From positions 34,844,001 through 34,908,000 of the forward strand of contig JANJGN010000026.1 of the NCBI GenBank assembly GCA_026770705.1: a DNA stretch of 64,000 nucleotides, in the 5' to 3' direction. The DNA is from Isurus oxyrinchus. Lineage: Eukaryota. Under the pieces are notes generated by a model. That model did no database searches and was not told where the DNA came from. It worked only from the letters and a program-made list of their open reading frames with translations. The translations under genes and the position numbers were made by a program. Below, piece by piece: positions 14,575 to 62,634 of this stretch; position 1 is the first letter of the stretch, and each line of letters starts with the position of its first letter.

Positions 14575-15293
14575 CTCAGTGAGAAAGGTCTCGGGGCAAC
14601 TCGCACTGTTCCCGTGTTTTGTGAGATCAGTGAAAATAAGATTCATTAGTTTCGGCCACCAGGTGGCACATCAGGCCGTGGATTCCCACCTCCTGACATA
14701 CTTGCTTAAAAATACTTGAGGAGAAATGGTGTTTCATCTCGTATGTGTGCCCATTAGTGTGACGTTTCCTTAGAGACCTATAATTGGGAAGTTTTATTTC
14801 AGTATTAATCAACAGCCCAGCTCCAGTACATTGGGATGGGATGCCCAGTTGTTCTGTTCCTCACGACAGATTCAGCCCCTTGATTTAACTGACTTCAACA
14901 ATGAAAGTATCTGAAAGTATATGAAAGGATAATACAACAATTCCTTAATTCCAGTCGCCAGACTGTTTTCCCCAGATTCGTAATGACTATCAACGTAACG
15001 CAGTCCTTACAGACCGGCAGAATTATATAATTTCTGTTGAGTGCATTAGTTTTGAATTCCGCTCATTATAGTTAGATTTTACGACTGACAACAGTGCCCG
15101 CGGCCGCCTCCCCCATAGTTCTGTTCGTTTCTCTCGCTCTGACCATCCTTGCCTTTTCTGTGATTTGGAAAGTTGTTATCCATTTTTCCTGGTTTGACGT
15201 TGGTTGGATCAACAGTACAGTGCGCCGGGGATCTGCACTTCTGCCCTGACAGAGGATTTGGCGGACTGCAGAGTTACAGACTCAGGGAGCATC

Positions 15294-15906
15294 ATGGGGA
15301 ATTACATCACACCCGGTCCTCGTCATTATATCACTTCTTCGTAAGCATTTCCTTCCCAGAAAAAATCCGTTCTCCCCCTGACTGCTATAATCCACATGAT
15401 ATTAATTGTAAGGTGATGCTGCTGATGATGAAACTACTTGAAATAATGGTGATGATGATCCTGATAATGATGACATCTACCCGACTACTTTATGTTAGGA
15501 TGGAGCCATCCACGCACAGTGGTCGGGTCGGTTGCTGAAATGATGCCGAAGCTGAAATGATGCCGAAGACGGCAGTAATACCACGTGATCTGAATCTTGA
15601 AAACATATCTCCACAACCATACAAAGAGTCATACGGATTCGAAATGTTAACTTTCTTCCTCTCCGCAGATGCTGTCAGAAACTGCTGAGTTTTTCTAGCT
15701 ATTTTTATTTTTGCTCCATAACCATTTGTTCTGGTATAGTCAGCAGCCCGATCAACATCCACATCTCTCGAATAATCTGATCGATGTGAATGAAAACAAG
15801 AAGACAGACATCATTGGTCAATTCTCTTCTACATTTAAGTAACTACCAAGATAACGGAGCTGAGGCTTTGACTGCTACGCAGCCGAGTATTTCTGTGCAC
15901 AAGTCC
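15294..15906 (+). pseudogene. TCR V pseudogene of the 36.8-kb family, interrupted by a repeat insertion (~15620-15720)
   Basis: Frameshifted leader 15294-15340 then GTAAGC; exon from 15499 GWSH...; LFWYSQQP..., EYFCA; promoter and RSS-spacer remnant homologous to the 36.8-kb V. Confidence 0.8.
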
Positions 15907-17739
15907 CAGGACAAAGATACGGCGGATCCCGGTCAAAATGCCAGAACGAGCGACTCAGTTAATGCTCAGCAGAGGGCGCTCGAACACCGGGAAACAAGGG
16001 CAAATATTCAGCCTTAGTGTCAGATTCAGGCGGAGCTTCCTGAAAAGAGCAAGAAACCCGTAACATTTTGTTGGGCCATGACCTCCGAGCTCCAAGGCCG
16101 TGTAAGTGGGCGATACACCAAAGATGCGCCGGGGAACACCCCGCCCGGAGTTCCCAGGCCAGATTTACACGGCAATTCTCCGGGAAGTAGACACTTCCCA
16201 TGGGCAATTGCTCTATACTGGGAACAAACAGAAAATACAATTTACATTGCAAACCTCGAATGGTTCCGACTGTCCGACATCAAGAGTTGCACAGAAAAAG
16301 TTAGAATTAAAACCACTTCTAGCTTCTGGGTGACTTTGTACAGAGCCACACTGACACCCACGAGTTTCCTTCCGCAATCCCGAACTCCCAGGGACTACCC
16401 CCACTTCTCAGACTCCAACTACCCCCACGGGACACCCCTAACCCCCGAACCCCCAGGGGACTCCCCGCACCTCACGACTACTCTCAGCCGCCTAAACCCA
16501 GCTGCACATATAAAGAAAGTCCAGTGAATAGTGAAATAGACGGAGAATTTCTCACCGTCTGGCAGCGCGGGATCCTGTGGATTGTAAACGGAAGAGGGAG
16601 GCGGAGAGAGAGAAGCATAAGTAAAAGCAGAAATGATATAAATAAATAGAGTTAACAAATCCAGGCAGGAAGCAGAAAAGGAGACAGCGGGTTAAAATTA
16701 TTGAATCGTGCGATGGCAGTGATTGAAAGGAAGATCTGAACATTGTCCCTGTGCACGGAGTGCCGCCTGCTCCAAGGTGCATCAGCCCCACACTTTATAC
16801 CGAGTGTTTAAAACCTGAACAATGTTCGGTGACGGTGAGTGAAACCCCTTTCTTCCGCCGTCGCCTCCACCATCACCATCGTATATCAGCTCAGTGCCTG
16901 TCTGGCCTCAATGGTTAAAGACCTGAGATAGTTACCTGTGAAGATCAGCGGATGAGGTCCCCATGGTGAATAATTTCAGTGCCGTCTGCTCTCACTAGTT
17001 AAAGATTTGAAACATTGAGCTGTGACAGACGAATGTATACCTCGTTTACGGATTAGCCCTGTGTCTGTCTGCATGCTTTCAGACACCGACACAATGCCGA
17101 ATATAAAGTTGAGAGGAAGAACGATGGGCGATGCATAGGGAGTTTGATAAAAATGAGACTTAGTATGGTGATAATGCAGAGAAACACTAACAGAAGGACA
17201 TAAATGAAAGTGAGATTGATTACATTGAGTGGTAGAGAGACATATTAACAGAGAAAGATGTGTAATGCTGTGGTGAGGACTGAATAGTAGAAGGGTATTG
17301 ATGCAGAAATGCATTTATAAATATAAAGGGACAGAAAGTAAACAATTGATAATGGCTATTCTCCCATATGACATTGGTGCAGTGAACAGCCGGAAAGGGG
17401 TCATCAGTGCTCTGTACAATACAAATGGACAAGAGAGACTAACACTGACTGAAGTTCTGGGATGTATACACAGTCTGTAGACTCCTCAGTGACACCAGGA
17501 AACATGAAAATTGGAGATTTTAATCAGGAAAATGGGAATCACGCTAAAGGAAACAACGGGAAACAGGCAAACATTAGCACACAGCTAACAGAAGAAAACA
17601 GCAAGTAAAAAAAAAAAACAAACTTGTGGTATAGGAATCTGAGAGCCTTTAATGTGACTTGAGTGACGGCCACCTCAGTGCATAAACCCAGTGCCTGGTC
17701 GTACACAGTTACTCAAGGATTAAGCAATACTCATTTATT

Positions 17740-18210
17740 AGTGCACAGTAAAATACCTCTGTTTACATTAAACCAGAGGTCACCTCATTTATTACTGCAC
17801 TGCACTGTTACACTATTACTGCATTAGATATGCCTCCGCTTATGTTAGACGAGGCCCTATTTTTGTTATTACTGACTACAACATTTTAATGCTTATGTTT
17901 ATATTACACTAGACACTGCCCCAATTGAACTACACTAGACCACATCCCACTTTATATTGCATTTGTTCCTTTTTTCAGTTATTTGCAATAGATTGCATCT
18001 TTGTCTCTGTGATCCTAGGTCATATCTCAGTTATTATTGCAAAAGGTCATCTCCATTTGTGTTAGGCAACATCCTGTCCCAGTATTACACAAGATAATGT
18101 CACTTTTAAATTACAGTAGCCCATGTCTCTATTTACGGTACATGAGACCCAATCTCATTTATTGCGGCATTACTCATGTCTGCTTGCATTACACTCGGCC
18201 TTGCCTGAAT
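17740..18210 (-). repeat. Degenerate 27-bp minisatellite array
   Basis: Same unit family as 4.2-5.1 kb; boundaries approximate. Confidence 0.6.
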
Positions 18211-18920
18211 TACTACTGCTTAAAAAGGCTTTGAAATGTTCGATCAGCCATGATTGTATTGAATGGCGGAGCAGCCTTGACGGGCTGAATGGCCTTCTCC
18301 TGTTCGTATGTTCCTTTGCTTCCAAATCCCGTACTATTGGCATTAATCTGAAGCAGACACTAGCCACCTAGCCAAGTAAGGTAACGAGCTTCCACTTACT
18401 CATTGTGTATGTTGTGTACATCTGCCAGGATATTGGTAATGTCACTGGACTCCCTCATATTGTAAACTGGCCCTCAGTTGCTGGGCCAGGAAAGATGCCA
18501 AGTCTGAGACGCTGGCCTTCAGGTCAGAAGTTTAATTGAGGTCCCGCCAGTCCGCTCAGGGCGATGTTAAACAATCTCCGGAATATTGGAGTAAGAGCGG
18601 GGAGGGGGGATTCTGCTGGTGTCCTGGGCCCACATTCCACCTTTAACAAACACCACCCAATACAAACACATGCACTGACCTCCCAGTTCATTGCTGTGGG
18701 GAAAGGAAGGAGGCAGCACAACTGGCAGAAAGAAAAGCTCCCCTCCCCCACTCATGTACACCAGAGTATTATGGGAGGGGCTTTCATATCCGGATCACAA
18801 TCCAAATGTGGAGTCAGAAAATTGCAGCCTCCTTTTATAAACCTGCCTCTTATTCACACAGCACTTAGCCAGCGACCCGGGAACCGTGCTGCCCATCAAT
18901 GATCTCAGCTAAACTGCCCT

Positions 18921-19022
18921 GTGCAAATCAACTCGGCCCCGTGAAAATATTTCAGTCCAGCTCTGAGGTCCGGTCTCCCAGTGCAGTCCAGGGCTGCGGT
19001 CTCTAGCTTCCCGTCATATAAA
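18921..19022 (+). promoter_or_regulatory. NAR-TCR V promoter
   Basis: Octamer-like GTGCAAAT 18921-28, CGTCA 19012-16, TATAAA 19017-22 ending 24 nt before the leader ATG at 19047. Confidence 0.55.
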
Positions 19023-19046
19023 CCCTCAGCTCCAGGCAGCAGAATA

Positions 19047-19520
19047 ATGGGAATCCTCCTTGTTTTCACCCTGTGTGTCTGTTTACCCCGTGAGTACCGA
19101 TCAAACAAACCGACATTGTGTGGGTTTAATATAAAGCTGCCCGAGTCCATCCCAATTACAAACACTGTCTGGGGTTTTGACCTAGTTCTCTGGTTCGGCT
19201 TTGATGGTCCATTGAACTCTCTCTGTTTAATTTCCAGGCTCTTTCAGTCAGTCAGTGACACAGACCCCGGCAGCGGTGACCAGGAAGGAGTGCCAGTCTC
19301 TCACCATCACCTGTGTTTTCTCCGGTGCTTCGTGGTATGATTTCCAAACGGGACATTTCTTCAAACAAACCCAGACCGGGACAGAGCGGGAGCGGATCTC
19401 CAGCGGGGGGAGATTTGTTGTGTCGGTGAATAAAGCACAAAATACATTTTCGCTGGAAATTGAGGAATTGAGAGTTGAGGACACCGCCACCTATTACTGT
19501 AAAGCTCATTACTACAGATA
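19047..19520 (+). CDS. NARTCR: NAR-TCR V gene segment (leader exon 19047-19089, V exon 19238-19520)
   Basis: MGILLVFTLCVCLP(R)SFSQSVTQTPAAVTRKECQSLTITCVFSGASWYDFQTGHFFKQTQTGTERERISSGGRFVVSVNKAQNTFSLEIEELRVEDTATYYCKAHYYRY. Open frame, GT/AG phase-1 intron, IgNAR-like CDR2 deletion (ERISSGGRF), YYCKA, extra FR1 Cys. Confidence 0.95.
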
Positions 19521-19558
19521 CACAGTGATGGGCCTCGGCTTCCTGCGATACAAAATCT
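19521..19558 (+). other. RSS of NAR-TCR V (22-nt spacer)
   Basis: CACAGTG 19521-27, 22 nt, ACAAAATCT 19550-58. Confidence 0.9.
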
Positions 19559-19884
19559 CACTGCAGGTTATCAGAGAAACAAATGAAAAAGTGGTGTTAA
19601 TTCTGCAGTTAAACCCCCACAGTTCCACCTCACACCGTCTGCCCCACATTCTAGTTTATAATGGAATTGGATTATTGCCGTTAACATCTTGAGTTTTATA
19701 AATGCCGAGTGCGGGCGGATGGTGATGTCTTTCCCGGGATTGGTGTCAGTGAATCGGGATTGGGAATGATTGATCCCAGTTACAAACCCCTACCACCAGA
19801 TGTGATCCTGGTCTAACAGCTGGAACCAGGAACCACAGTCCCCGGTGTTTAACTAATGTCCCCACATCTCACCAAGTACCCGGG

Positions 19885-19957
19885 GGGTTTTATACTGACT
19901 TGTAACACTGTGTGGGAGTATGGGGAAGTCACAGTGGGAAAGACCTGAGCAAATACC
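19885..19957 (+). other. NARTCR: NAR-TCR D segment (19913-19929, TGGGAGTATGGGGAAGT) flanked by 12-RSS on both sides
   Basis: GGGTTTTAT-12-CACTGTG (19885-19912) and CACAGTG-12-GCAAATACC (19930-19957); open in all three forward frames (WEYGE, GSMGK, GVWGS). Confidence 0.92.
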
Positions 19958-20265
19958 TCTGTACGGTCACAATATAAATTCTCCTGGTCTGGATAGTGAA
20001 TTGTTGTGTTATTATCGCTGGAATCTAGCTACATTTCATCGTAATTTCCATCATTCAGTTATCTTTTTTAATATTTTTCTCGCTTTATATGAAGCGAAAA
20101 TCTCGTCCCCGGGACCATTTCCTGAGAGCTCAGGGCCTCACAAAGAACAGTTTGAACCGACAGAGACTTTAGAACATGGAATATTGTTTGTTTATTTCAA
20201 TCCGTTGAATAGTTGGGCAGTTTCTACTGTCTGATGATGATTTCCAGGCAGGTTGAGGTGTCGGT

Positions 20266-20354
20266 GGTTGTTGCACCGGGGACACTGAGAGTGGAGTCAC
20301 TGTGGAAATATTATTATGCGGATGGATCCGGGACGGTGGTGACTGTCACAGCCG
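20266..20354 (+). other. NARTCR: NAR-TCR J segment (20305-20354) with 23-RSS
   Basis: GGTTGTTGC-23-CACTGTG (20266-20304); KYYYADGSGTVVTVTA; phase-1 donor G|GTAAGT at 20355. Confidence 0.93.
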
Positions 20355-21229
20355 GTAAGTGACTCCAAACCCCGCCGGGTTACAGCCTGTCCTCTGTCAG
20401 TTTATTACTGATGTCAGTGGGGTCTGGGGGGATGTGAGAGTTGACAGAATCTGGGGCGTTATCGGTTTAACGGGAACATTGGGGACATGATCAACATCAC
20501 AGACTCTCACAGTCTGAATCGCTTTTAATGAGCACAGGTTGTTGACACTCAGGACTCCACACCCGGTGTTAACTGTGACCGAGGGAGCTCTGTCTGTCCC
20601 TGAGAGCCCAGGAGCGGGGTAACAGAGCTCTCTCCTGGGCAGCAGATTGCAGTTCAAGCCGCGCAATGTGAATGAGGTACCGGGTGAATAAATTCAACAC
20701 AACTGAGGCCAGTTCAGATACCTTCCAGACCTGACCCGGGAGAAAAATGGGAGAGTGACACAAGGGGCCTCAGATATATGAGATCCTGATGTGAGTCCAG
20801 GTTGAATTCTATATTTGACAATCAGTGACTAAAATTAGTGACATTGTCCCCGCCATTTCTTTCAATTGCCTTTATAGAACCAATCACTTTCCTCCTTTTC
20901 CGTCCTCAGAACGAAATGTGGAAGTTTGGAACTGCAGACACTTCTCTATATTGAATGTAGATGTTTGAGAGATGTGATTGCTGTAATTTATCTGTATCCC
21001 TGATTACTGTGAACTGAAACAGCACAGTGCAGTGAGACAGTGAGGATGATGTATTAATCGTATAAAGGAGAGGAGGGTCATAAGGAAACAATTATAAGCT
21101 AGGAGAATGATCATTTAGAATCGGCAAGAAAGAAATAATCGAAAGGGAGAGAACGATTGGATGATTTCTGGGCGATTTTCAAAGTAACATTCGACTCGGT
21201 GGTGGGTGAGGTTTATGGAGGGAAGGACT

Positions 21230-21790
21230 GAAATAGACTCCAGTCCGGAATGCTGTGTAAAGTTTTGGTCCCCTTTTAGAAGGGAGATCAATCTGCATTG
21301 GAAGGAGTGCAACAAAGGTTCATCAGACTGATTCCTGAGATGAAGGAATTGTCTAATGGGAAGAGATTTAGTCGTCTCGGTCTGTATTTCCTAGAGTTTA
21401 GAAGAATGAGATGTGATCTCATGAAAACATATAATATTCTGAAGGGACTTGACAGGGCAGATTCTGGGTCGGTGTCTCCTCAGACTGAGGAGTATATAAC
21501 TTGGGGTCACAGCTTCAGTATAAAGAGTCATCCATTAGAACTGAGAAGGAAAATAATTCTTCAATAGAATCACTGTTGTTAATCTGTGGCATTCCGTAAC
21601 TCAGAGAGCGGTGGGTGTTCATAATCTATGTGCATTCAAGACAATATTTGATAGGTTTTCAGACATTAAAGGGATCAGCGATATGGGGAGAGTGCGGGAA
21701 TGTGACGTAGCGGTTGTAAATCAGCCAGGATATTACTGAATGGCTGAGCAAGTTTGAAAGGTGATATGGGGGCTCCTGCTTCTATTGATT
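21230..21790 (+). mobile_element. CR1 LINE 3' fragment
   Basis: EGVQQRFIRLIPEMK...RRMRCDLMKTYNILKGLDR followed by a CR1-type 3' UTR. Confidence 0.8.
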
Positions 21791-23265
21791 GGATGCTCTG
21801 CTTTGATTTCTTACACTCCTGAGGGAAGAAACAATCAGCAACAATCCACATCTCTCTGGGAAGATTGAACAGGCTGGGTCTCTTTTTTCTGGAAAACAGA
21901 ACCACAAGGAGAATCCATGGAAATCTTTCAATATTGAACGGGTTTAATCTGGACAAATTGAATGTAAAGCAATAGGCGTCAACATATGAAACTAAATAAC
22001 AGAACAGATAAAACATTTAAAACAAATGAATTTAAAGAAAGGCAGGTCAGAATGTGGAACTTGCTGCCTCAGGGAGAGGTTGGAGATTGTATTGATATCG
22101 TAATTGGAACACTTGAAAATACAGGAGGGAGAACGGAACAGACCAACACAGGGAGCTGGATGTAAATGGTCAATTAGATTTCTGGTGGGGTCAAGCGGGA
22201 ATTGATTATATACACAGGCTGAATGGCCCATTCCTCTTCCTCATTCTTCTTCCTCAATAATGTAAAATTGAGAGAAAACTCCATCCAGTAATCCCCGGAG
22301 AGATCAGTCAGTGGGCGGGAAGAATTGAAATCGTCAGAGAGCCGGAAGAGGCAGTTCCCAGTGAGTAACAGTAAAACCACTGCGGAAACTGAATAACTAA
22401 ACCCAGCCGACAACTCAGAGAGATTGGGACAAGTTCCCACGGTTGCAAAAAAACGCAAACAGCACAAAATAAATGTGAAATAAAGGGAATGTGAAATTGA
22501 AGAAATAAAATAAAATTAATTGCACCTATTTGATATTAAGCTGAACTGGAGAAAATAGGACCCTATTGTTAGAACATAAAGAAATAGAGCAAAAGGCAGA
22601 TAGAAATTCCTGAACAGTTTTAAACCGCAGTAAATGATTGACCTTTCACCACGAGAGTTGCTCACTCTCGGTTTGGCCCAATCGGTGCGGATGAATCCCA
22701 TCAGTTTGTGTTGGATCTTGCTGTGCACGGTCATGCCACACAGCTGTGTTTCTCTTCGACAAACATGCTTTTTTTGGAAACTGGTTGCCTCGCTGAACAT
22801 GAAATGCTCTCTCGTGTTTGTGTCTCACCAAGGGAAATAGAAACGGGAATGTAATATAATTCATAGAATTATCCAGCACGGAATGATGACATTCGGCCCC
22901 TCGTGTAGGTGCTGACCCTTTAAAAGTGCAATCCAATTGTTCCCACTGCCCATGAATTTTCTCCATAGCTTTATATTTTTATTTACATTTCCAGCACAGA
23001 CCTATTACCCGTTTGAAAGTCACTATTGAATCTATCCCCAACACCAATTCAGACAGTCCAGTCCTGATCGGAAGAACTCGCGATGTAAAATAAAGCATCA
23101 CATCATTCCCCATTTGGTCATATTTTCAAAACAGTGAACACGGTTCAAGTAGGCTTCCAGCAAATAAAATTACAGCAAAAAGCAGAGCTATTCACGTGAT
23201 TGACAGATTCTCCTGGACAAACAGTGGCTGAACAAAACGATAGTGTTCATTTTTTTATCCTACAG

Positions 23266-23565
23266 ATTCCAGTTCCATAATTTCCCGGATTTCGCCTCTA
23301 CAAACGTCTGCTGTCGGTGACACCGTTACTTTAAACTGGGAATATTCAGGGTTCTGCGCAGTACACTGGTACCGTCAGTCCTTAGGACAGGCTCCGGAAT
23401 ATCTGCTTCAGGGACAAACTTCAGGAGAGGCGACTAAAGAAAACGCTGCCGGGGGGAGAATTTCTGCTTCCATCGATTCTACCGAGAAAATCAGCCGGTT
23501 AAAGATCTCCAAACTGCAACTGAGCGACTCCGCTGTTTATTACTGTGAACTGAGTCAGCGCACAG
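23266..23565 (+). CDS. Leaderless supporting TCR-delta V of the NAR-TCR cassette (open frame, Cys23->Trp)
   Basis: Acceptor CCTACAG| at 23265; (D)SSSIISRISPLQTSAVGDTVTLNWEYSGFCAVHWYRQSLGQAPEYLLQGQTSGEATKENAAGGRISASIDSTEKISRLKISKLQLSDSAVYYCELSQRT. No leader exon seen upstream; phase matches the NAR J donor (G+AT=Asp); CDR1 Cys at 23355-57. Confidence 0.9.
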
Positions 23566-23780
23566 CACAGTGATACAGAGCACGAAGAGAGCTGTACAAA
23601 AACCTCAACATGGTGCACAGTGATACAGAAACCGGAGGGCGCTGTACAAAAACTTAAAACATGCTTGGAGAACATACACACAGTGATAGACAGCACAGAG
23701 AGAGCTGTACAAAAACCTGAACATGGTGGGGATTACAGACACACTGTGACACAAGGCACGGAGAGAGTTCAAATAATTGT
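23566..23780 (+). repeat. Tandem array of 23-RSSs (3 intact + 1 degenerate)
   Basis: CACAGTG-23-ACAAAAACC 23566-23604; CACAGTG-23-ACAAAAACT 23616-23654; CACAGTG-23-ACAAAAACC 23679-23717; CACTGTG 23742 with a homologous spacer but no nonamer. Confidence 0.95.
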
Positions 23781-23793
23781 CAATTTTCGGGTT

Positions 23794-23959
23794 NNNNNNN
23801 NNNNNNNNNNNNNNNNNNNNNNNNNNNNNNNNNNNNNNNNNNNNNNNNNNNNNNNNNNNNNNNNNNNNNNNNNNNNNNNNNNNNNNNNNNNNNNNNNNNN
23901 NNNNNNNNNNNNNNNNNNNNNNNNNNNNNNNNNNNNNNNNNNNNNNNNNNNNNNNNNNN
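23794..23959. other. Assembly gap
   Basis: Run of N. Confidence 1.
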
Positions 23960-24179
23960 GGAGGGAATCACTCCACGAATGCACTTTCAATTGACCTTAC
24001 AATTTTATGTCACAGAATAAAACCGTTAAACACATCAAGTTCACACGTTCTTTCTGGCTCCGCAGAGCCTTTAATATTTTTATACTTCGAGCCGCCAAAA
24101 TAATTCATTCAATTATCCATTCTTCAACAAGCGATATGCACTTTTTGGGCATAAATGGTTGAAGGTGGCCTGACAGCCT

Positions 24180-33947: not shown

Positions 33948-35443
33948 TGTCGCTGTCCGCTCTGTGAAAGGGGAGTTGGTTATTTGAAGATACCCGTTCT
34001 AAACCCCAGCCTTAATAACCTGCTGTCCTGTCTCAGGATGTTCTCATCTCAGTACCTGTGCCCCCAGTGGTGATGTCTGGACGCCAGTTGGTGAGCTGGC
34101 TCCCAATGCATTGAAACATCCCGAACTGGGCTACAGTCAGTGTTCTTATAGGTGAAATGGTTTCACAGTTAGACACGTGAGGCAGGAGACTGAAACCCTT
34201 GTTTAGTTACTGTAACCGGGAACATAAAGTTGCTGATAGTGTTTGTTATTCTGGTGTGAATCCTTCAGCTCCAGTTCCAGTAGTCTTAACAACAGGACAC
34301 AGGTAACCGTGACTCCAGTGAGGTTTCCCTCCTCAATCAATAAAATAGTGAACTAACAGTCATTTCGCATTTTTCCAGAGTGGTTTTTAGATTCGTTATG
34401 TTGAAAGATGAAATCTGCTGTTACTGAACATACAACTGAGTAAAATAAATAATAAACTCTGGCTGTAATTTAATCAATGTTACCAGAACTGCCCTCTTTT
34501 TTAAAGTTTGCATTTAAAATTCTGTTTCAGTTTGTTCTATTGAATTCTGACATCAGTTGTGTCCGTGATGATTAATCTAAGCATCCATAATCTACAAAAT
34601 TAGAGGATTAGAATTTGTGACGAGAGAGAATTTGGGGTCCGGCGCATCTGTGCATTTTTTTTGCAATTTGCCTCTCATCAGTCTAAAGTGCTTGGGAACA
34701 GAGCGCAGCGAGCGGGTTCAAAGCCTCCAGAGTGAAGTGTCGAGCGCGTTTTCATGAACAGGAACACAACACCAGCAGGACTGTTTTTACAACTTTAGCA
34801 GGGTTAGGAAAAAGCAGTGGAGCTGAAAAAGAAATAAACCACATAAGTTTTTAGTTTGTCTTGCGTTCCTTTAACACCCATTTCCACCATTGGTGCAGTT
34901 AGAATTATTGCGATCGGACGCCCTCTTTTGGGCGCTCTGAGAAATTTTCGGGCGCCGTTCGTCAGGTGACAAGAGATTCTATGTTTCAGCACTGACCTGA
35001 TGTGACAATTCATTGTCGTATTGTTCGTTTGAGCGGTCCCGACTTAATATTCTGAGGAGAAGCAAAGGTTTTATATAATTAAACTAAAGGCTGCAACAAG
35101 GATGGGGGAAGTGTTCTGAGTAAAAAGTGAAGACAAGCCATGAAAGGCAAGGGAAAGGCAAAATACATTAAAAGGCAAAAGGCCAGTTCAGGTTCGACAG
35201 GTGTATCTGTAAATTTTATTTTTATTATAGATGTGAGCTTTTGAAATAATTTTACAAGTGGAACTCGCCTGTTCTTGTTCAGTGTTGTGCTTCATTTCAG
35301 TTTTTAAAAATCCCTGTGAATCTCACGTGGTGGCTGATTTAGTGCATTCGTTTTATTGGTGCGGCAGCGCCCTCTAGTGACTCTAACCGGAACTCCCAGT
35401 GTGGGTTTTTGTACAGTATCCGCTGTACCTCTGCAGCACTGTG

Positions 35444-35902
35444 GGGCTCATGGCACAGAAATACATGGCGGTGTCCGAGAACAGGGCATTGCTAGTCGTT
35501 AACTCAGTAGCTTTGGCAGCTTTACTAAACGTAGAAGAGAATTGGTCTGTAAAGTTTGGCTTCCGCTTTGCTATCCCCCCCACAGAGGTAAATCACAAAC
35601 TGTGGGGGCTACCCGGGCTGCTGACTGTAACACTGGGCGAGGATCACTTGTTTTCAAGGTGCAGTTTATGACGTCATTCCCTTCCACTTTAACTGTCATT
35701 TCAGGTACCGACTGCTCCACTGAATCGTCATGACTCCATTCTGACATAGACAATGACGATATTTAACGTTGCATCATCAGGACAAGCATTTTGCCATAAA
35801 TAATGCTTGCGATACGGCAGCCAGGGGGAGAATTACTTTGTACTGGGAAATATACTTACTGAGAAGTGACATAATAACGAATGGTCTGAGATAGTCCCAC
35901 AT
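35444..35902 (-). pseudogene. TCR alpha/delta V pseudogene
   Basis: Leader MWDYLRPFVIMSLL 35902-35860; exon 35740-35444 with a frameshifting deletion at CDR1/FR2 and a TAG; ends DTAMYFCAMS; RSS CACAGTG-24-ACAAAAACC (35443-35404). Confidence 0.9.
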
Positions 35903-36754
35903 GATGCTCCCTGCATCTGTTACTCTGTTGACCACAAATCCTCTGTCAGGGTAGAAATAGAGGTCTCCTCCCCACTGGACTCCTGATCCAACCAATGTCA
36001 AACAGGGAAAAGCGGCAACAATCTCTCCAATGAAACAGGGCAGCCAAGGCAGGTCAGAGCGAGAACAGCAGAAGGAAGCTGTGCGCGGGGCTACTGCAGG
36101 CAGCGTTGTCACATGTAGGATTTATCTACAAGGAACTGAACTCAATAATAATCACAGCATCGAAAATTATATAACTATTCCTCTCTGTAAGAACTGTAGC
36201 TTAATCTTCATTCCATATTGATGGCCAGCAGGCTCGCAAAAGCAGAGTCAGAGTTAGTAAATTATTCAATAATAAGCGTCATCTTCATCAGCGATGCGGA
36301 TTGAAACCAGGACCGCATACATGAGCAACAGGTTTCGGAGTGGTTCTGAATTAATGTATAAGATAGTAGAAAAAGCTTTAAACGTTTATATTAGTGAGGG
36401 AAAACGGAAATGTATGCAGTTTTCAGAAAAGACTGAAGACACGAATGATAAGAAACATTTAGGAAGGGAAAGGTGTCGAAAACCAAAAAGGGGAAATAAG
36501 GCAGCGCAGACCGATTTTTCAATCTCATATCTAATAAAAATACAACGTGCAATCACAAACCAATATGACTGTGCAAGTGGACCTCACCTGCTGCTGCTAT
36601 TGAGTCCTGTGTTTTGTTGCAATTTTCAGAATCTCCCTGTTACTCTCACTGTGGAAACTGAATTACCGGTGTGTGCGCGCCCTCTGGTGAACACATGGTG
36701 GTACTGCCAGTGAGGGTTTTTGTACGGGATCCGCTATATCTCTGCAGCAGTGTG

Positions 36755-37259
36755 GGCTCCATGGCACAGAAATACACGGCGCTGTCGGGTGTCAATGTGT
36801 TACTGATCGTTAGCTCGGTAATCTTGTTATTTTTATTCAACGTGGAAGAAAACCGATCATTGAGGTGGGTGTCCCTTTGCACACTCTGGCCAATAAGACG
36901 AAACATGTACATTGGAGGTTTCCCGGGGCGCTGACTGTACCAGTGTGCATAAGGGTTAGAATCACTTGTTTTGAAGGTGCAAGTTAGTGTGACATTACTT
37001 TCCTCTTCAGCAGTTATTTCGTCAACCGGCTGCTCCACTGTGTCTTGATGACTCCATTCTAACAGAAATAATAATAAAAACGACAATCAGTATCAGCCCC
37101 ATACTAATCAACATAATCATCATCAACACCATCATTATTATTTGACCAACAATAACATCTGGGTAGTAGCAGCTAGGAGGAGAATGGAGTTTTACTGGGA
37201 AGGAAACACTTACTGACAAGTGACATAATGATGAGGATAGGAGCTAGACTGTTCCCCAT
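36755..37259 (-). CDS. TCR alpha/delta V, apparently functional (leader 37259-37214, V 37058-36755)
   Basis: MGNSLAPILIIMSLV(K)WSHQDTVEQPVDEITAEEESNVTLTCTFKTSDSNPYAHWYSQRPGKPPMYMF...DSAVYFCAME; RSS CACACTG-24-ACAAAAACC (36754-36715). Confidence 0.92.
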
Positions 37260-38548
37260 GATACTTCCTGAGTCAGTAACTCTGCAGAGCGAGAGGTCCT
37301 CTGTCGGAGCAGAAATACATATCCCCGTTCCACTGCACTGCTGATCCAGCCAATGACAGGAATGGACCAGCAGCAACAACCTCTCCAATAACACAATCAG
37401 GTCAGAGCGACAGCAGCAACCGGAAGCTGTGGGTGGTGATACTGTACACTCAAAACTGAGTGAAATGTGCCGTGACTCTCAGCTGCACTCGGAACTCATG
37501 GAGCAGAAATAGTGACGGTTGAGTCCGCATAAGTCCCTGACCATCCTGCACCTGCTCACTGTTCAAGTGACTGAGAAAAATAGTGGGAGGGACAGGAAAG
37601 GACTCGAATCATGGAATTTTAGAGCAAGCAACGGCTGATAGGAACAAGCGTCCTAGGATGTGGAGGATGTTGTGTGAGTTGGACCTGCTTTCGGCTAGAC
37701 AGCTGAAGAAGAGGATTTACGGAGAACAATCCCAGTTTCTCTGAGGCCCTTATCCATGGTACCATTCTGATGTATCGCTTTCACACTTCCTCCAAAGGCC
37801 TTACATTCATTTCTAATTCGTGATGCCCAGGATTGGACACTGTAATGGGGCGCCCCCTGGCAAAGCCAATATTTGCTGTCCAAGCCTAACTGTCCGAAAA
37901 CTGCATATTTCTGAGTCAACCGCATTGCTATGGGTCTGGAGTCATATGTAGGCCAGATCAGATAAGGATCACAAATTTCCTTCCCTACATTCCTTACAAC
38001 AACGGATGATAGTTTCATTGTCACTATTACTGAGATTGTTTTTATATTCCAGATTAATGAATTGAATTTAAATTCCTGCAGCTGCCATGGTGGGACTAGA
38101 ACCCATGCTCCCAGAACACTTTCCTGGGCCTCTGAATTGTTAGACCAGTGATATTATTAATACTCCACTATGTCCCCACATTTGTCATCACTTTCTGGCA
38201 TTAGCATGAGAAACAATACTGACAGTGTTTAATCAGGTCCAAGTTAGACTTCTGAGAGATATTGTCTGACATTCGCGCTTTAACATGTAAATCAAGAAAT
38301 CTAGTCAATGACCCCATTCTAAACCGGACTGAACAGAATTCATCAGCAGAGGGCGCCAAGGGCATCGCAAATTCACGTGTCACCAACGGTAAAGCCAATA
38401 GGGACGGTTTCCAGAGTGAGGTCACAATGGGCCTGGCCCCCTGCAGTATGTGTGTGGAACAATGAGCTGAATAGATTGCGGGTGAGGGAACTCCTTCTCA
38501 ACCTCTGACTCAGTCCATTCACATTCACTGACAGAGATTCAATCAGAC

Positions 38549-39072: not shown

Positions 39073-40439
39073 CATAGCGTCAGTTAAGAGCCAAGATTCC
39101 GTACAAAAACCTGAGTGAGTGTTCCAGGCTTTATTCAGTGCTCTTTGGCTCTTTTACGCGTGGGAATCCTGACCCCAAGCCAACTGAGATCAAATATTGG
39201 CAGATTGGCTTTTCAAACAGTTTTATTGTTGTTGTTGCCCTTGTGCACATCAAAGGGAACCGGTCTGGGAAATCTTGAGCCATTTGTTTATGTCCACAGC
39301 TCTCTCTCCTCGGTAAGGGTCTCCAAGTTCATCCGGAATATTGATATGTGAACAGAGGCAGAGAAAGCTTTTCGGAGGAACAGCAACTAAAGCCTAACAT
39401 TACGAACCTCTCTTCCAGACCTCTAACTCAGACAAACTCGGGGAGATTCTGCGCCATTCGTTCCTGTAACAAAATACAGAATTTGACAAAGTCGGGGACT
39501 GGGTGTAACACATGAAATATGCAATGACTATTTGAACATACACTCGCCATATAACATCACCAGAAAGGAACGTGGGGTGTATCAGGTTTCGATTTTGACA
39601 GAAAATAACTGAATTTTAAAGGTTTTTTGATAGTTTTCTTCTGATGTTAAAGAATAAACATGAACTAGGGGCAGGCTTCACATATTGGGATGCCGAGGGG
39701 GAGTATAATATGTAAGAAAGCTCTCTGATACTGGCACAGGTTACAAACGGTCATATGAACAAACATAAGAGGTGCCTTTTTTGCCAGTCGCTTGAAAGTA
39801 AATTTCTCGGGTCTTCCCCGGATACTGGATGTACCAGAACAATGTTGAATCAGTTTTCAATTAACTGTGCAGCTCAAAGTAAAGATCTGCCTTTCCTGAA
39901 GCATTACTAAAGACGGATTCTGGGGCACCCATTCAGCCCTGTTTATCTTCAGAATGAGTGAATCGTCTGGGTATAAATATAACCCTTGAAACACATACAT
40001 GCATTGATCATTTGAACATAGACTCTCTGAGCAACACGAAAAATAGAAAGAATAATATGAACAAGAAGAATGTGACAGAATAATGCAACCAAATCCTTCA
40101 GTAATTTAAGGCATTATTGAATTTCCAGGCAATTGCCATTTACCTCACAGCGACACGAGAGGGCGCTGCATCATCGTTTTTGGATGTTGCCTGCAGCAGA
40201 TCAGTCAAAAGACCACAGGGGCCTGGGGAATGAGGAAGGCCTTTCGTCCCATCTTATTTCGTCCGTCTAGAAATGCCCCGCACTCCGACAGTTTCCTCTG
40301 GTAAATACAAAACTAATTCCTCGGTTTTGAATTCTGTTACTCGGGAATGCTCAAGAGGGCAGAATGGGAATAACACAGAGATCTTGGAGGATTGTGGAGC
40401 TCAAGGAGATGATAGAAATCGGGCGGGGCGCGGCCATGG

Positions 40440-51354: not shown

Positions 51355-54300
51355 GCAGAGGTAGATCAGTTTTTGATAAACAAGGGAGTGGAAGGTAGCC
51401 GGGGTTAGGTGGGAGGTTACAGTCAGATCAGCCTTCACCTTATTTAATAGCGGAGTAGGCTCTAAGGGCAAATTACTCCTGCTCCTATTTCCTATGTTTG
51501 CAGATGCTTGCCATCCTGAAATTTGATTGATTTTCTACTTTGATAATTAAGGTGCTCGCAAGCCTTATATTCTTCCACAATGAACAATCACAACCTCATC
51601 AGTTGCGGATTTAAGAATTCATGAACCAGAATTTCATCTACTTATGCAAATGAACATGTACTTTCTTAATGACGTCGGCAAGTCAGAAAACGGAGGTAAA
51701 TAATCTCGGGCTGAATATTAAATAGTAAAAGTAGCAGAAGCAAAAGAATGGAAAGAGAGAAGTAATAATAAAATCAGAGCCATAAAAACCATAATAACGT
51801 GGCAGAATAATCATGCAGCAATATTCGAGAATAAATTGAGAGTCGTTGTTTTACAGGCAAGATTCCACGAGTTGGCACTCCAAGATCTTATCTTTGGAGA
51901 AAACTTAGCAAGCCGTCAGTTCACTACTCTGACAGGTGACAGCTGGGGATTACAGGAAATATTTAGGTGCCGTGACATGTTACTGTAAACAATAGTGCAT
52001 ATAGGGCAAGAATCAATAGATTAAGTCCCGACTTAGAGTTGGAGCCATATAAGTCATTATATTTCATGGTCCAATTTCACTGCACAGTCTGAAATAAAAT
52101 GTTACCAAAATGAGAGACAGAGAGAGAGGCAGGCAGAGAGATACAGAGAGAGAGAGAGAGAGAGAAAGAGATAGACCGAGAGAGAGAGATCAGTCCACCT
52201 TTCCGTGACCGAATATTTTGGTCACTATTGGCCACAGCTTCAAAGTATCTGGAAAATACTTGGACACTCAAATCCCTTCAATCCACTACAAAGGTCAGAG
52301 AGTTAAACATTCCCACTGCCCTCTGTGTAAACAATATTACTAACATCACAACAGCGACTAGACTGGAAAGGTACTTCCTTAGGTTGGAAAGTGCTTACTG
52401 ACACCCTGAGTCTGTGAAAGGCGATTTCTCTTTTCGAGTGATGTTTGATTCCAGGTGTAAAAATTTAATGCCCCCATGTTTCTATGGTGTCCAGTAAAGT
52501 TTAATTTTCCGAATTCCCTTCTCTTTAATTCAATCCTTTTCCCTGGATTGTGTTGATGAAGGGTCAAGACGTCCTGGGATTATCAGGATTCTGTCTCCGG
52601 TATTTTCACAGATTCTGTCCACTCGACGGGACATTGTTAATGTGTCGGAAACGACAATCTGGGAATTTACTAAGGAACCCCTGACGGAAACTGCCTTCCT
52701 GTTCAGAGACCCCCAGTGATCGAGGCGCCTAGAGGCCACTGCGACCCGTATGTCAACCAACAACCTGATCACCACTATGAAAGTCTTATACTCATGTACC
52801 TGATCGTGTATATATAAATTATGCATTCACTTTCAGGAAGCTGCGCATGCATAACAACACAAAGGCCATTCTGCAAACACTACATCTCAGCCGCAGATTC
52901 AGATATTCGCCCTATCGCCTCTGAACAAGACGTTTCAGGCTTCCGTCCATTTCTCGAGGCAGAGTCTATACTGATACTTCAGTTCAGTCCTCAGGGAATG
53001 GTACACCATTAGAGGGGCCGGCTTTCGGATGAAATGTTAAATCGAGGACACCGTCTATCCTTTCAGGTGGACATAATTGATCACATGAGCGCTATTTTGG
53101 AGGAAGAAAGGGAAATTGGCCCGGACAATATTTCTCCAACAATCACCGTAACCGAAATGGTTGTAGTTGTTGAATGTCAGCCATCTCAGCTCCAGGACAA
53201 GCAGTGGTAGATCGATTTTTGATAAGCAAGAGAGTGGAAGGTAACAGGGGATAGCTGGGACGTTACAGTCAGATCAGCCATGAACTTATTGAATGGCGGA
53301 GCAGGCCTGAAGGGCCGACAGGCCTACTCCTTCTCCTATTTCCCATGTTCGTATATATTTGGCATCCTGAATTTTGGATGATACGGGTACTCTCAAGCCT
53401 TACTTTCTTCCGAACTGAACAATCATAACCTCATCAGTTGCGGATTTAAGAATTCATGAACAAGAAATTCATCTATGCAAGTGAACACGGACTGTCTTAA
53501 TGACGTAGGCACGTCGGAAAATTGAGGTAATTAATCGAGGACTGAAAATTAAATAGTAAAAGTAGCAGAAGCAAAAGAATGGAAAGGCAGAAGCTACAGT
53601 GATAATACAACTAAAGCCATAAAAAAATAATGTGGCAGAATAATCATGCAGCAATTTTCGAGAATAAATTAAGAGCCGTTCTTTTACAGACAGATTTCCA
53701 CTAGATGGCGCTCCGTAACCTTATTTTCGGAGAAAACTTACCAAGCGCTCAGTTCACCGCTCTGACAGGTGACAGCTGGGGATTATAGGAAACGTTTTGG
53801 CGTCGTGACACGTTACTGTAAACAATAGTGTAAATAGGGCAAGAATCAATAAATTAGTTACACAAGATACTGAGAGATGGAGCCCTATAAATCATTGTAT
53901 TTCATGGTCCAAATTCACTGCGTAGTCCGAAGNNNNNNNNNNNNNNNNNNNNNNNNNNNNNNNNNNNNNNNNNNNNNNNNNNNNNNNNNNNNNNNNNNNN
54001 NNNNNNNNNNNNNNNNNNNNNNNNNNNNNNNNNNNNNNNNNNNNNNNNNNNNNNNNNNNNNNNNNNNNNNNNNNNNNNNNNNCTGACCGAATATTTTGGT
54101 TACTATTGGCCACAGCTTCAAAGTATCCGGAAAACACCTGGACACTCAAATCCCTTCACTCCACTACAAGGGCCAGAGTGACTTTCTGGCAGAGAATTAA
54201 ACATTACCACTGCCGTCTGTGTGAACAAAATTTCTCACATCACAGCAGCGACTACACTGAAAAGGTACCTCATTGGGTTGGAAAGTGCTTACCGACACCA

Positions 54301-55062: not shown

Positions 55063-55612
55063 TATCACTGCAGGAGTTCCTCAGAATAATGTCCTCGGCC
55101 CAACCACCTTCAGCTGCTTCATATCCACCTTCCTTCCATCATAAGGTCAGAAGTGGGGATATTTTGTGGATAATTGCACAATGTTCAACACATTTCGCGA
55201 CTCCTCAGATACTAAAGCAGTTCATGCCCATATGCAGCAAGATCTGGACAACATCAGGCTTGAGCTGACAAGGGGCAGATAGCATTCAAGCCGCACAAGT
55301 GCCAGGCAATGAACATCTCCAACAAAACAGAATCTAACCATCGTCCCTTGACATTCAATGGCATTACCATCACTGAATCCCAAACTGTCACCACACTGGG
55401 GGTTATCATTGACAAGAAACTGAACTGGCCTAGGCATATAAATACTGTGGCTACAAGATCAGTTTGGAGGTTAGGAATCCTGTGGCGAGCAACTCACCTC
55501 CTCACTTCCCAAAGCCTGTCCACCGTCTACAAGGCACAAGTCAGGGGTTTGATGGAATATTCTCTACTTTCCCGGATGAGTGCAGTTCTCACGGCACTCA
55601 AGAAGCTTGACA
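55025..55612 (+). mobile_element. Non-LTR retrotransposon RT fragment
   Basis: ITAGVPQNNVLGPTTFSCFI and LGVIIDKKLNW...YKAQVRGLMEYS. Confidence 0.8.
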
Positions 55613-58066: not shown

Positions 58067-58358
58067 CAACAATTAGCGATGATCCAGTGTTCCAGGATCC
58101 TTCTGAGTTAACGCTTCGGGAAAGGCAGACTTTAGGTACTCGACAAACTAACTTGACCCCACTCTGTTCCGGTATATTCAGTGTCCCGGGGAAGTTCTAA
58201 GATATTACTGAAGATATATAACTTGGGGAATGAAGCGAGGTCTCCAAACTTACCAAACAGGTTATTTGCTGATTTCCACAATGGAAACAAAACGTTTCCT
58301 CTAACGATCACAAGGGTGATTCTCGCCGAGAGCGCGGTGTATTTCTATGCTATGAACC
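58067..58358 (+). pseudogene. TCR V pseudogene
   Basis: ISDDPVFQDPSELTLRE..., PTLFRYIQCPG, NRLFADFHNGNKTFPLTITRVILAESAVYFYAMN; RSS GACATTG-24-GCTGAAACC 58359-58398. Confidence 0.82.
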
Positions 58359-59363
58359 GACATTGTTGCAGAGATATAGCGGATCCCGTGCTGAAACCCT
58401 CACTGGGAGTTCAACTGTGATCTCGCACCGATAAAGAGAAACAATAATTCAATCACCGCAAAAAGAGTCAAAGGGACATTCCTGAAAGATCATAACAAAA
58501 CACAACACTCAACAAGAAGAGGTCAGGAACACTTGCAGAATTATATTAGATTATTTAAATTCGCTTTTGTATTATAACTGACCCTCATAGGTTTATTTAC
58601 TTTAATTTACACAATGTATTTTACTGCAGTTTCAGTGCCTGTCTGTAATATTGAACAACCATTTTTTAATCTCCCTTGTCAGTTTCCTGGAGCCTTTTTG
58701 CTAGAGCTGTTCACAGGGTTTATTTGATCAGAGTGTGTTGCTGGGTCAGAAAATGTTTATGCACAATGATCAGATTTCACAAGGGTGCGTTCTTTAAAAC
58801 AAACCCCAAGTACAGATTGAGCTTCAGAATGTTTCCTTAATGCTGGAATGTTTTCTGTCACCAATAACAATGCCGAGTTTGCTTGTGACAATGAACAGAC
58901 CGGGATTTCATTCCCCCAACCTCCGTCTCTACAAGTGCAGCCATTCCCCTATCAGGGAACTGACTGCAGTCCAGCTCGGGGTACTTCCCTTCAGTGTCAG
59001 ACAGCTCACCACCGACGGACCCCCAGGCCAACGGAGACAGAAGGAAGTGAAGTGAGAGCATCTTGAGACGCGACAGCAAATTATTGAGGGTGGGGATTAG
59101 AATGGATGTCTTCAAATCAGATTCTGTGATAGCTCTCTCGGTCGGTTAGAGTTCTGCAGTTTATCCTGTCGGTCGCTCCTGGAAACGGTTAGTAACAGTT
59201 TGATCCGAGGTCAATGTAGTTTTCTCTCGGTTTGTGTTTGAGAGGCCGACAAGCTGACACTGCATCTGCCCGAGATTCTCTACAAACCCCAACAGACAGG
59301 AGCCCTTATTCACAGTGCCAAGGCAGTTTTTGCACAGGGGTGAGACAGCTTTCCATCACTGTG

Positions 59364-59830
59364 AGTCTGAGAGCGCAGTAATACACGGCAGCGTCAGTCA
59401 GCTACAGATCAGAGATGGTTAAACTGGTGAATTTATTCGAGGTCTGGAGCTCTGCAGAGAAACGGCTTTTAGCAAAATCTGCTTTATCTTCACCACTACT
59501 CGAGTGTTTCCACAATATAAACTCAGGCTGTGAATTTGGGTGGTGCCGGCACCAGAACAAATAATAGTTGCTCATTGTCGTCTCATAGGTACAGTTTAAA
59601 GTCACCGCTTCTCCTTCTGCCTTTCCCTCTGAGGACAGCGGCTGAATGACATAATCTCCATGACTCAGATCTGTACAACATGCTCAAACAGAAAATGGTC
59701 GGACCGAGATCATTTTAAAATTCACGTTTACGGCATTTTTTGACAAATAGGGGAAAATAGTAAATGTGTCTGGCTCATATTTACCTGTCAGAAATGCTTC
59801 CCACACAACCCAGATGCTGAGGAGCCGCAT
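59364..59830 (-). pseudogene. TCR V pseudogene (single stop), paralog of the 33.5-kb V
   Basis: Leader MRLLSIWVVWEAFLT 59830-59785 with intact GT; exon 59670-59364; TAG at 59404-02 (ISDL*LTDAAVYYCALR); RSS CACAGTG-23-GCAAAAACT (59363-59325). Confidence 0.92.
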
Positions 59831-61322
59831 TGTCGCTGTCCGTTCTGTAAAACGGGGAGTTGGATATCTGAAGATACCCGTTCTAAACCCCACCCTGAAC
59901 AATCTGCTGTCGCGTCTCGTGATGTTCTCACCTCACTCCCTTCTGTCCCCAGCGGTGATGTGAGGACGTCAGCTGTGAGCTGGCTCCCAATGAGTTGAAA
60001 AATCCCGAGCTGGGGTACAGTCAGTGTTCTAATAGGTGAAATGGTTTCGCAGTTAGACTAAAACCCTTATTTAGTTGTTGTAACCGGAGGCATGGGTTTG
60101 CTGATTTAGTTTGTTTATTCTGGCGTCAATTCTTCAGCTGAAGTTCTAGTAGCCTTAACAACAGGATACAGGAAACAGTGACTCCAGTGAGATTTCCCTC
60201 CTCAATCAGTGAAGTAGTGAACTAACAATAATTTCGCCATTTTGCCAGAGTGTTTTTTGGATCCGTCATATTGAAAGGATGATATTTGCTGACACTGAAC
60301 ATACCCTGAGTAAAAATTAATAATAAACTCGCGTGTAATTTAATCAGCGTTGCCAGCACTGACTTTTTCTGTGATTTGCATTTAAATTTCTGTTTCAATT
60401 TGTTCTGTGAATTCTGACATTCTTCGTGTTTGTGATAATTAAGCTAACCATCCATTAGATACAGGTTTGGAATTTGTGATGAGAGAGAATTTGGGGTCCG
60501 GCGCTTTTTAAGCAACTTGTCTCCTATCGCTTTAAAGTGGTCGGGAACAGAGAGCGAGAGCGGGTTCAAAGCTTCCAGGATGAGCTGCAGAGCGGGTTTT
60601 TATTAACAAGAATTGAGTACCAGCAGGACTGTTTTAATAACCTTAGCTGGGGTTAGAAAATGGCTGTGGAGCAGAAAAAGAAATAAACCAGAGACATTTT
60701 TAGTTTGTCTTTCGCTCCTTTAATATCCATTTTCACCACCGATGCAGTTAGAATTACTGCGACCTCACGCCCTCTAGTGAATATTCTGAGAAATGTTCAG
60801 ACGCCGCTGGTCAGATTGTGAGAGATTCTTTACTTAATCACTGATTTGATGTGACAGTTCATATTTGTAGGATGTTCAGTTTCAGCGGTCCTGACTTAAT
60901 ATTCTGAGCAAAAAAAACAAACGTTTTATATTACTGAACTAAAGACTGTAAGAAGAAATAAAAAGGGCAATGATTAAATAATAAAGCCAGGCGATGAGAG
61001 GAAACAGACTGGGAAAATATCGGGAAAGGCAGATCTTTAAGATTCCACAGGTGTATGTGTAAATTTAATTTTTATATAAATGTGAGTTGTTGGTATGATT
61101 TTACAAGTGGACGTCCACTGTTCTTGTTGAATGTTGTGTTTCATTGCAATTTTAAACGCCTATGTAAATCTCATTGTGGTGGCTGAATTATTGCTTCCGT
61201 TTTTATTAAATTTATTGAATCATTTCTTTCCGTTTTATTGTTGCCTCAGCACCCTCTAGGGACGCAAGTTGGAGCCGGCGTGGGTTTTTGTCCGTGATCC
61301 TGCATATCTCTGCAGCATTGTG

Positions 61323-61789
61323 GGGCTCCAAGGCACAGAAATACACGGCAGAGAGCAGGGTTTTGCTAATCATTACCTCAGCAGTTCAGATAGTCTTGCT
61401 AAAGCGTTGAAAGAATTGTTGTGTAAAGTCTGGGTTCCGCTTTATTATCCCTCTGCAGAGATAAAACACAAACTGTGGAGTCTGCCTGGGCTGCTGACTG
61501 TACCGGAACACGTAAGGGCTGGGGTGGCTTGTTTTCAAAATGCAGGGCATGGTGACATTCCCTTCCTCTTTGACAGTCATTTCAGTTACATACTGCTCCA
61601 CTGAATCCTGATTGCTCTGTTCCGACACAGATAATGACAATATTTATCGTTACTTCATCATTACAAGCAATTTGCTATAAAGAATATTTGGCATACGGCA
61701 GCCGGGGGGGTGGGGGGAAGAGAATTTTTTTTTTACATATACTTACTGAGATGCGATATAATACTGAGTGGCCTGACATATTTCCACGT
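61323..61789 (-). pseudogene. TCR V pseudogene, paralog of the 35.4-kb V
   Basis: Start ATG->ACG, acceptor AG->GG, frameshift/stop in FR3; RSS CACAATG-24-ACAAAAACC (61322-61283). Confidence 0.88.
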
Positions 61790-62634
61790 TGTCCCCCGAG
61801 TCTGTTATTCTGTTGTCCTGGAATCCTCTGTCAGCTTAGAAACAGAGATTGCCTCCCCACTGCGCTGCTGATCCAACCAATGTCAAACAAGGCAAAGCGG
61901 CGACAAGCTCTCCAATAAAACAGGACAGACAAGGCAGGTCAGAGCGACAACAGCAAATGGAAGCTGTGGGCGTGGCTACCGCAGGCAGTGTTGTCACACG
62001 TAGGATTTATCTACAAGGAACTGAAATGAATAATAATCACACCTTCGAAAATTATACAACTTTGCTTCTCTCTCACAACTCAGTTTATACTTCTTTCCAT
62101 ATTCCGAGCCTCATAGATAGCAACAGAAGTGTCAGAGTTAGTATATAATTCAGTGGTAAGCGAAATCTTCTTCAGCGCTGCGGATTGAAACCAGGACCGA
62201 ATACATGAGCAACCGGATTGGAGTGGTCCTGAATGAATGTAAAAGGAAGTCGATAAACCTTAAACGTTTATATTAAACACGGGAAAAGGAAATGTGTGCA
62301 ATTTTCAGAAAAGTCTGAAGACGAGTGGTCAGGAAAACTCAGGAAGGGAAAGGTGTCGAAAACCAAAAAGGAGAAATTAGGCATGGCAGGCCGATTTGTC
62401 AATCTCATATCTATTAGAAATACAAATTGCAATCACAAACTAATGAGACAGTACAAGTGGACCTCACTAGTTGCTGTTATCAAGTGTTGTGTTTTATTGC
62501 TATTTTCAGAATCTTCATGTCACTCTCACAGTGGAAACTGAATTACCGGTGTGTATGCGCCCTCTGGTGAGCACTGGCTGGAACTGCCAGTGAGGGTTTT
62601 TGTAAGGAACCCGCTATATCACTGCAGCAGTTTG

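Follow-up and report, generated by a model that had tools for sequence, protein, structure and literature searches.

One clade of V genes in the shark Isurus oxyrinchus carries, a fixed short distance behind the recombination signal sequence (RSS), a predicted CTCF site whose most informative letters are constrained even in copies whose V exon and RSS have decayed. The clade was identified in a 64,000-nucleotide stretch of DNA, hereafter the window (C26:34,844,001-34,908,000; genome 4.98 Gb). As judged from its homologs, which are named shark T cell receptor (TCR) models, the V array of the window belongs to the shark TCR alpha/delta V locus. The site is fixed in position, confined to one clade, duplicated together with its V and constrained in dead copies. 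From sequence comparison, these predicted sites probably act as cohesin-stalling anchors, which would help to fold the whole multi-megabase V array.

Constraint on the letters of the site in dead copies

All CTCF scores were obtained with a mammalian matrix (JASPAR MA0139.1 counts). Copies of the clade were gathered with a hidden Markov model (HMM) of the V end plus the RSS, the site being excluded, which yielded 176 matches, 156 of them with full flanks and 70 that are not near-identical. Seven of the 70 were dropped, four belonging to other families and three being cut by insertions. The remaining 63 copies comprise 11 whose exon is open and whose RSS is usable (leaders unchecked) and 52 that are non-intact. 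A site of at least 12 bits is found in 9 of the 11 intact and 41 of the 52 non-intact copies (medians 15.2 and 16.1, respectively). The persistence of motifs behind decayed pseudogenes, claimed in an earlier note on the window, thus holds for most copies and fails for a pseudogene in the window ending at 58398, which has lost its site.

The number of parsimony changes per motif column drops as matrix information rises (Spearman -0.72, p 0.0005), and motif positions 5, 10 and 13 are unchanged across 57-58 copies, as against 0/79 near-flank columns. In 26 independent pairs of extant non-intact copies, the six high-information positions (5, 9, 10, 13, 14 and 15) differ in 5 of 135 comparisons, against 304 of 1788 in the flank. 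A comparison of motif with flank among paralogs, which the earlier note had proposed, therefore finds the motif better conserved, also among pseudogenes. What is constrained is the letters of the site, a narrower result than the retention of whole pseudogenes as CTCF anchors that the earlier note considered possible. The exon (1043/6481) and the RSS (59/391) of the same pairs show flank-like divergence, and the degenerate motif positions, which differ in 33/180, are without constraint. Where frame and RSS are both broken, the six positions differ in 4/44 comparisons and the flank in 164/674 (p 0.017).

This pattern bears on the possibility that the motif was carried along passively in a single ancestral cassette, spread by segmental duplication, and that its conservation reflects mutation-rate bias, alignment anchoring or ascertainment. 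Several observations fit such an origin: the RSS-side sites all come from one cassette, which makes enrichment counts non-independent, intact genes tolerate deletion of the site, the flank is conserved to Heterodontus too, and some loci were retrieved with queries that contained the site. The passenger account is nevertheless very unlikely, because constraint follows matrix information within the motif, degenerate positions behaving like flank (33 differences against 31.0 expected). The signal also survives matching for trinucleotide context (5 differences observed at the six positions, 23.7 expected) and restriction to block-sampled copies from the site-less HMM (4/68 against 260/1022 in the flank), and none of 157 slid six-position combs is as low as the motif set.

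The same pairs bear on a second account, in which the site does no more than favour rearrangement of its own V, in the manner of VH81X, and its conservation in pseudogenes is left over from a functional period. Position, strand and fixed spacing are as in mouse RSS-associated sites (PMC6746451), constraint is seen only in the RSS-side class, and the non-standard RSS of the clade (24-nt spacer in 23/27 genes) might need help. Left-over conservation should, however, spare both elements, whereas in dead pairs the RSS has diverged as fast as the flank and the site is spared. In addition, the site is typically absent from non-functional 7183/Q52 genes of mouse (PMC6746451) but is kept here in 41 of 52 non-intact copies, and an own-V role is on balance unlikely. 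As the RSS decays while the site holds, selection on something besides use of the adjacent V is suggested.

Outside Isurus, a Heterodontus francisci gene model contains a read-through peptide across RSS and flank that fits a 24-nt spacer and a site at the same offset; 36 of its 48 residues match the read-through of a clade copy, and its flank is conserved too. The P0061 read-through was rejected as support, its motif looking altered. Contigs of three other organisms span the site region but mix paralogs, and were left out of the counts.

Clade restriction, spacing and the members in the window

The extent of the clade was surveyed in nine blocks (1.26 Mb) picked around known matches and C regions, and hence non-random, in which 111 RSS-flanked candidates yielded 98 confirmed V genes. 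A forward site that scores at least 12 bits and lies no more than 60 nt from the nonamer follows 18 of the 27 clade genes, which form three related clusters, as against 0 of 71 other V genes. All 18 sites point forward, in V orientation, one copy having an overlapping reverse match as well. The 19-mer lies at an offset of 20-22 nt past the nonamer in most copies, and the printed mouse VH consensus is best placed 21-23 nt past it in 35 of 41 copies (at most 4 mismatches). Genome-wide, all 33 matches to an exact RSS-plus-motif pattern have the spacer of the clade (judged by eye), and the control gave 0. Enrichment counts were rejected as a tally of independent events: the RSS-side sites all descend from one module, and the counts therefore show a single origin rather than repeated selection.

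The module includes the RSS, for which 23 of 27 clade genes and 1 of 71 other V genes have a 24-nt spacer. This spacer is present in intact clade genes too, and apparently also in Heterodontus; NAR-TCR V genes have 22-nt RSS spacers, and a relative of the clade at C26:32,266,116 has a 23-nt RSS and no site. Spacers of 23+1 nt recombine less well. A literature search found no paper on 24-nt RSS spacers, and the available part of PMC10536018 is silent on them. Identity between two subfamilies of the clade is 42-50% for the bulk of the exon and rises to 86-90% across the exon end and RSS; the linker is 75% identical, the site 83% and the sequence immediately after it 69%. A 3' module of RSS plus site may thus have been transferred between V families.

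Six members of the clade lie in the window, five with an RSS-adjacent site. The six 14-mers quoted in the earlier note and its five further positions are all present exactly as written. Its statement that the sites lie 20-25 bp past the nonamer in one V family holds for five of the 14-mers, found at 20-24 nt, although that at 61262 is weak; the sixth, at 14656, which the note itself placed slightly farther off, lies ~39 nt away. The best preserved of the members is an apparently intact V gene at 36755-37259 on the minus strand (leader exon 37259-37214, V exon 37058-36755). Its open frame, leader and GT/AG splice sites were read from the sequence, and it is 63-73% identical to Heterodontus and Scyliorhinus models. 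The 24-nt-spacer RSS of this gene, CACACTG-24-ACAAAAACC (36715-36754, minus), is followed by a site at 36675-36693 (minus; 17.2 bits, 21 nt past the nonamer; 14-mer at 36690, 24 nt past). Relatives of the gene are spread over C26 from 23.9 to 40.2 Mb and occur on unplaced scaffolds.

Three pseudogenes of the clade share the minus strand with it. That at 35404-35750 is frameshifted and has an intact RSS with a 24-nt spacer (35443-35404) and a site at 35365-35383 (17.2 bits, 20 nt past the nonamer; 14-mer at 35380, 23 nt past). The pseudogene at 61283-61631 (RSS 61322-61283) has a weakened site at 61247-61265 (8.8 bits, 17 nt past the nonamer; 14-mer at 61262, 20 nt past). The third, at 62595-62980, has an insertion in its exon, the heptamer CAAACTG (RSS 62634-62595) and a site at 62555-62573 (14.6 bits; 14-mer at 62570, 24 nt past); an inverted-repeat insertion scar lies inside it at 62677-62758.

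The single plus-strand member with a site, at 15.9 kb, is a badly decayed relic with a decayed RSS (15485-15941), found by tblastn and matched at 15836-15941 by the clade HMM that lacks the site. Behind it stands a site at 15963-15981 (plus; 17.5 bits; 14-mer at 15966, ~24 nt past), whose 19-mer has an identical copy in a paralog only 82% alike overall. The sixth member, a second-subfamily pseudogene at 58157-58398 (plus), has lost its site by deletion. The flipping of motifs with V orientation, described in the earlier note, does not serve as evidence of function, since any flank flips with a duplicated cassette.

In the window as a whole, 8 matches score 15 bits or more, whereas 30 dinucleotide shuffles average 0.7 such matches and never exceed 3. 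One of the 8, at 14653-14671 (plus; 21.3 bits), lies ~39 nt behind the dead RSS of a V relic at 14.3 kb, an RSS dead in 5/5 full-length copies seen. This site has two candidate owners, the RSS of that relic or the 15.9-kb V, upstream of whose leader region it lies. The further matches listed in the earlier note are present but belong to other classes of site. The match at 38343 (38340-38358, plus; 18.9 bits) is on the promoter side of another V family, ~730 nt before a heptamer at 39073, and 9 of 10 members of this 39.0/50.3-kb family have a site of at least 12 bits at -670 to -750. At 38340-38400 and in paralogs, the upstream site is head-to-head with a clade V and is followed, ~15-25 nt on, by a recurrent GTCACGTG box. 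A third V family has an upstream site at about -1135 in 3/3 members. The matches at 51865, 53698 and 40153 are intergenic cassette sites: 53695-53713 (plus; 20.4 bits), its paralog 51862-51880 (10.8 bits) and 40150-40168 (plus; 15.7 bits). That at 60767 is a second, weaker site ~0.5 kb behind a clade RSS (60765-60783, minus; 11.6 bits), with a paralog at 34916-34934 (12.6 bits).

The receptor locus and its J/C end

Both strands of the window carry V genes and relics, ~16 in all. The identification of the locus as TCR alpha/delta, made in the earlier note, is upheld by homologs among shark TCR models and by the order of segments, a V array with NAR-TCR cassettes and then D-delta, J-delta and C-delta followed by a J-alpha array and C-alpha. 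The D-J-C end lies on a separate scaffold, C242, with D at 590 kb, J at 595-608 kb and a constant region at 617 kb; further along, 657-735 kb is taken up by a long array of J segments with 12-RSSs, and another constant region ends at 752 kb. The labels C-delta, J-alpha and C-alpha on this scaffold are inferred from position. No V-J joint was found in the single partial contig from one possible RNA run.

Further receptor elements lie on both scaffolds and elsewhere. An NAR-TCR-type V-D-J cassette with its supporting V-delta occupies 19246-23717 of the window, with three tandem 23-RSSs after the supporting V-delta (23566, 23616 and 23679). A second, inverted D-delta/J-delta/C-delta unit lies in the middle of the V array at C26:29,899,682-29,934,131. 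On C242:380,000-545,000, cassettes of NAR-TCR V and supporting V-delta adjoin D-delta, nearly all inverted relative to D-J-C, and inversional joining is therefore implied; no CTCF-like site of at least 12 bits was found near them. At C16:85.8-88.5 Mb, 24 identical-type 12-RSS matches in both orientations, spaced ~100 kb apart, are probably immunoglobulin light-chain clusters.

CTCF-like sequences occur at the J/C end as well. Between C-delta and the first J-alpha (C242:636,990-659,287), five V-facing matches reach at least 14.5 bits, compared with a mean of 0.55 and a maximum of 3 in 200 shuffles, although the interval was picked after being seen. The best of them, 24.1 bits at C242:656,314, lies ~760 nt before the first J-alpha RSS, and the cluster sits where mouse has its TEA site. 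A 12.6-kb tandem array begins 12 kb behind C-alpha (C242:764,107-776,665) and consists of ~290 copies of a 43-bp unit, with 285 locus-facing matches of at least 13 bits, the units mostly scoring 17.0 bits. All 202 exact matches to the unit in the genome fall inside the array, and 20,000 shuffled versions of the unit include 5 that reach 17 bits. An outward-facing 19.0-bit site lies beyond it at C242:778,220. The array resembles the Igh 3' super-anchor in position and direction, but it counts as a single event and may be no more than an ordinary satellite.

This layout bears on a third account, in which the sites are bound and selected for a role other than V(D)J folding, such as insulation of V promoters, maintenance of an unmethylated state, or germ-line binding of CTCF or CTCFL. 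Constraint that is independent of V function would fit equally well, CTCFL is testis-biased in sharks (PMC7471279), and the motif CpG is protected, having changed in 3/18 pairs against 91/142 flank CpGs (22 pairs). Only a small chance is given to such a role, however, as the fixed RSS offset and the V-facing clusters at the J/C end parallel mouse antigen-receptor elements (PMC5859386, PMC7515734), and CTCF-like matches of at least 15 bits are far denser in V blocks (93 in 664 kb) than in control DNA (0 in 80 kb, 8 stretches).

The anchor model, its difficulties and its parallels

In the folding model preferred here, CTCF would bind the predicted sites in thymocytes, and loops extruded from the V-facing sites at the J/C end, namely the pre-J-alpha cluster and the array behind C-alpha, would pause at V-linked sites. 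Since V genes and sites face both ways, final capture of the RSS would occur by short-range diffusion, as in mouse Igk, rather than by one-way RAG scanning of the Igh type. In intact members, the site might also raise use of its own 24-nt-spacer RSS, which is speculative. A more ambitious version, rather doubtful, holds that a complete CTCF layout folds the shark locus and predates the bony-vertebrate split: selected V-linked sites, a cluster facing the V genes at the position of TEA, and a super-anchor of ~290 units, with dead V cassettes serving as spaced loop anchors that let a mixed-orientation array of >16 Mb recombine.

Several observations weigh against an anchoring role. The core of the site is deleted in 6 of 63 copies, as against 0-2 for RSS-side windows; these copies include an intact-frame lineage (L009, L011, L013) whose deletion runs between short repeats, so that no single site is essential. 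The upstream sites show no constraint in the pair test (13/77 against 198/1178, with 4/22 rows being non-homologous repeats), nor do the intergenic ones (5/35 against 83/530), which does not fit a general model in which every site is an anchor. Likewise, a segment resembling the U motif (5-6 nt before the core; lead e1-9552764) is unconstrained at offsets 8-15, with 43/194 differences in dead pairs, not below flank; its 3/40 in intact pairs is not significant. Against the 14 letters of the mouse VH consensus as printed, most copies have 3-4 mismatches.

The test itself and the geometry of the locus add to these difficulties. The pair test excluded gap positions, and position 4, where most clade sites have T and the matrix prefers C, was dropped from the six-position set after inspection; with it added back, 9 differences are seen against 26.2 expected (p 1e-4). 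Some divergence between dead copies may date from the functional period of an ancestor. One-way RAG scanning of the mouse Igh kind does not agree with V genes and sites that face both ways. On C26, 13 clade genes are on the plus and 13 on the minus strand, and the 800 kb of C242, which contain no N, hold 40 plus and 67 minus V-like matches, counted at hit level with one family over-counted. The first 360 kb of C242 have 20 sites on each strand, clade sites facing both ways. Direction relative to J is read on C242, which is not joined to C26, the scaffold of the window.

The closest parallel is found in IGH, where VH genes of clans II/III in mouse and human have RSS-associated CTCF sites (mVH-CTCF, Ciccone 2019, PMC6746451; the 'A state', Bolland 2016, PMC4914699; VH81X-CBE, bioRxiv 2020.01.01.891473). 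In mouse these lie 17-19 bp past the nonamer, >98% of them in one direction (PMC6746451). The shark sites likewise stand a fixed short distance behind the nonamer, on the strand of the V, in one V clade, and are conserved above the linker. They differ in belonging to TCR alpha/delta V genes, in an offset of about 21-23 nt and in having T at position 4. Furthermore, the clade is not D-proximal but extends across at least 16 Mb, its predicted sites face both directions, and most of its pseudogenes keep the site. The mouse-VH-like architecture suggested in the earlier note survives in strand, near-equal spacing and clade restriction, and not in a one-way form of the RAG scanning that it invoked.

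Mouse Tcra/Tcrd has V promoter sites, a V-facing TEA site and EACBE behind C-alpha (PMC5859386, PMC7515734). The shark locus shares upstream sites on particular V families, motifs behind C-alpha and a V-facing motif just 5' of the first J-alpha. In mouse, however, the sites are listed as upstream or intergenic and not RSS-adjacent, and 129 of 144 face J-C. The shark 3' array is directed into the locus, unlike the mouse E-alpha site, which points away from it. Mouse Igk (Cer/Sis; Zhang 2024, PMC11153149) is similar in its two-way V genes and CTCF sites and in its need for inversional joining, but most of its sites are intergenic and show no correlation with the direction of the V genes (PMC5859386), and it relies on strong RSSs, unlike the non-standard ones of the shark clade.

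CTCF binding has been mapped in two sharks (Hara 2018, as cited in PMC7471279). No paper on CTCF sites at shark TCR V genes was found in a search that left most subscription papers and supplementary tables outside its reach, and CTCF occurs 0 times in the available part of PMC12227049. The position-specific constraint on pseudogene-linked sites and the layout at the J/C end, as read from sequence, thus appear to be new.

To our knowledge, nearly everything known of how CTCF controls V(D)J recombination comes from mouse and human. If an RSS-side site is indeed constrained in the TCR locus of a shark, the design would date to the root of jawed vertebrates or would have arisen twice. The persistence of the site on pseudogenes would also separate help to the adjacent V from folding of the locus, two roles that are confounded in mouse.

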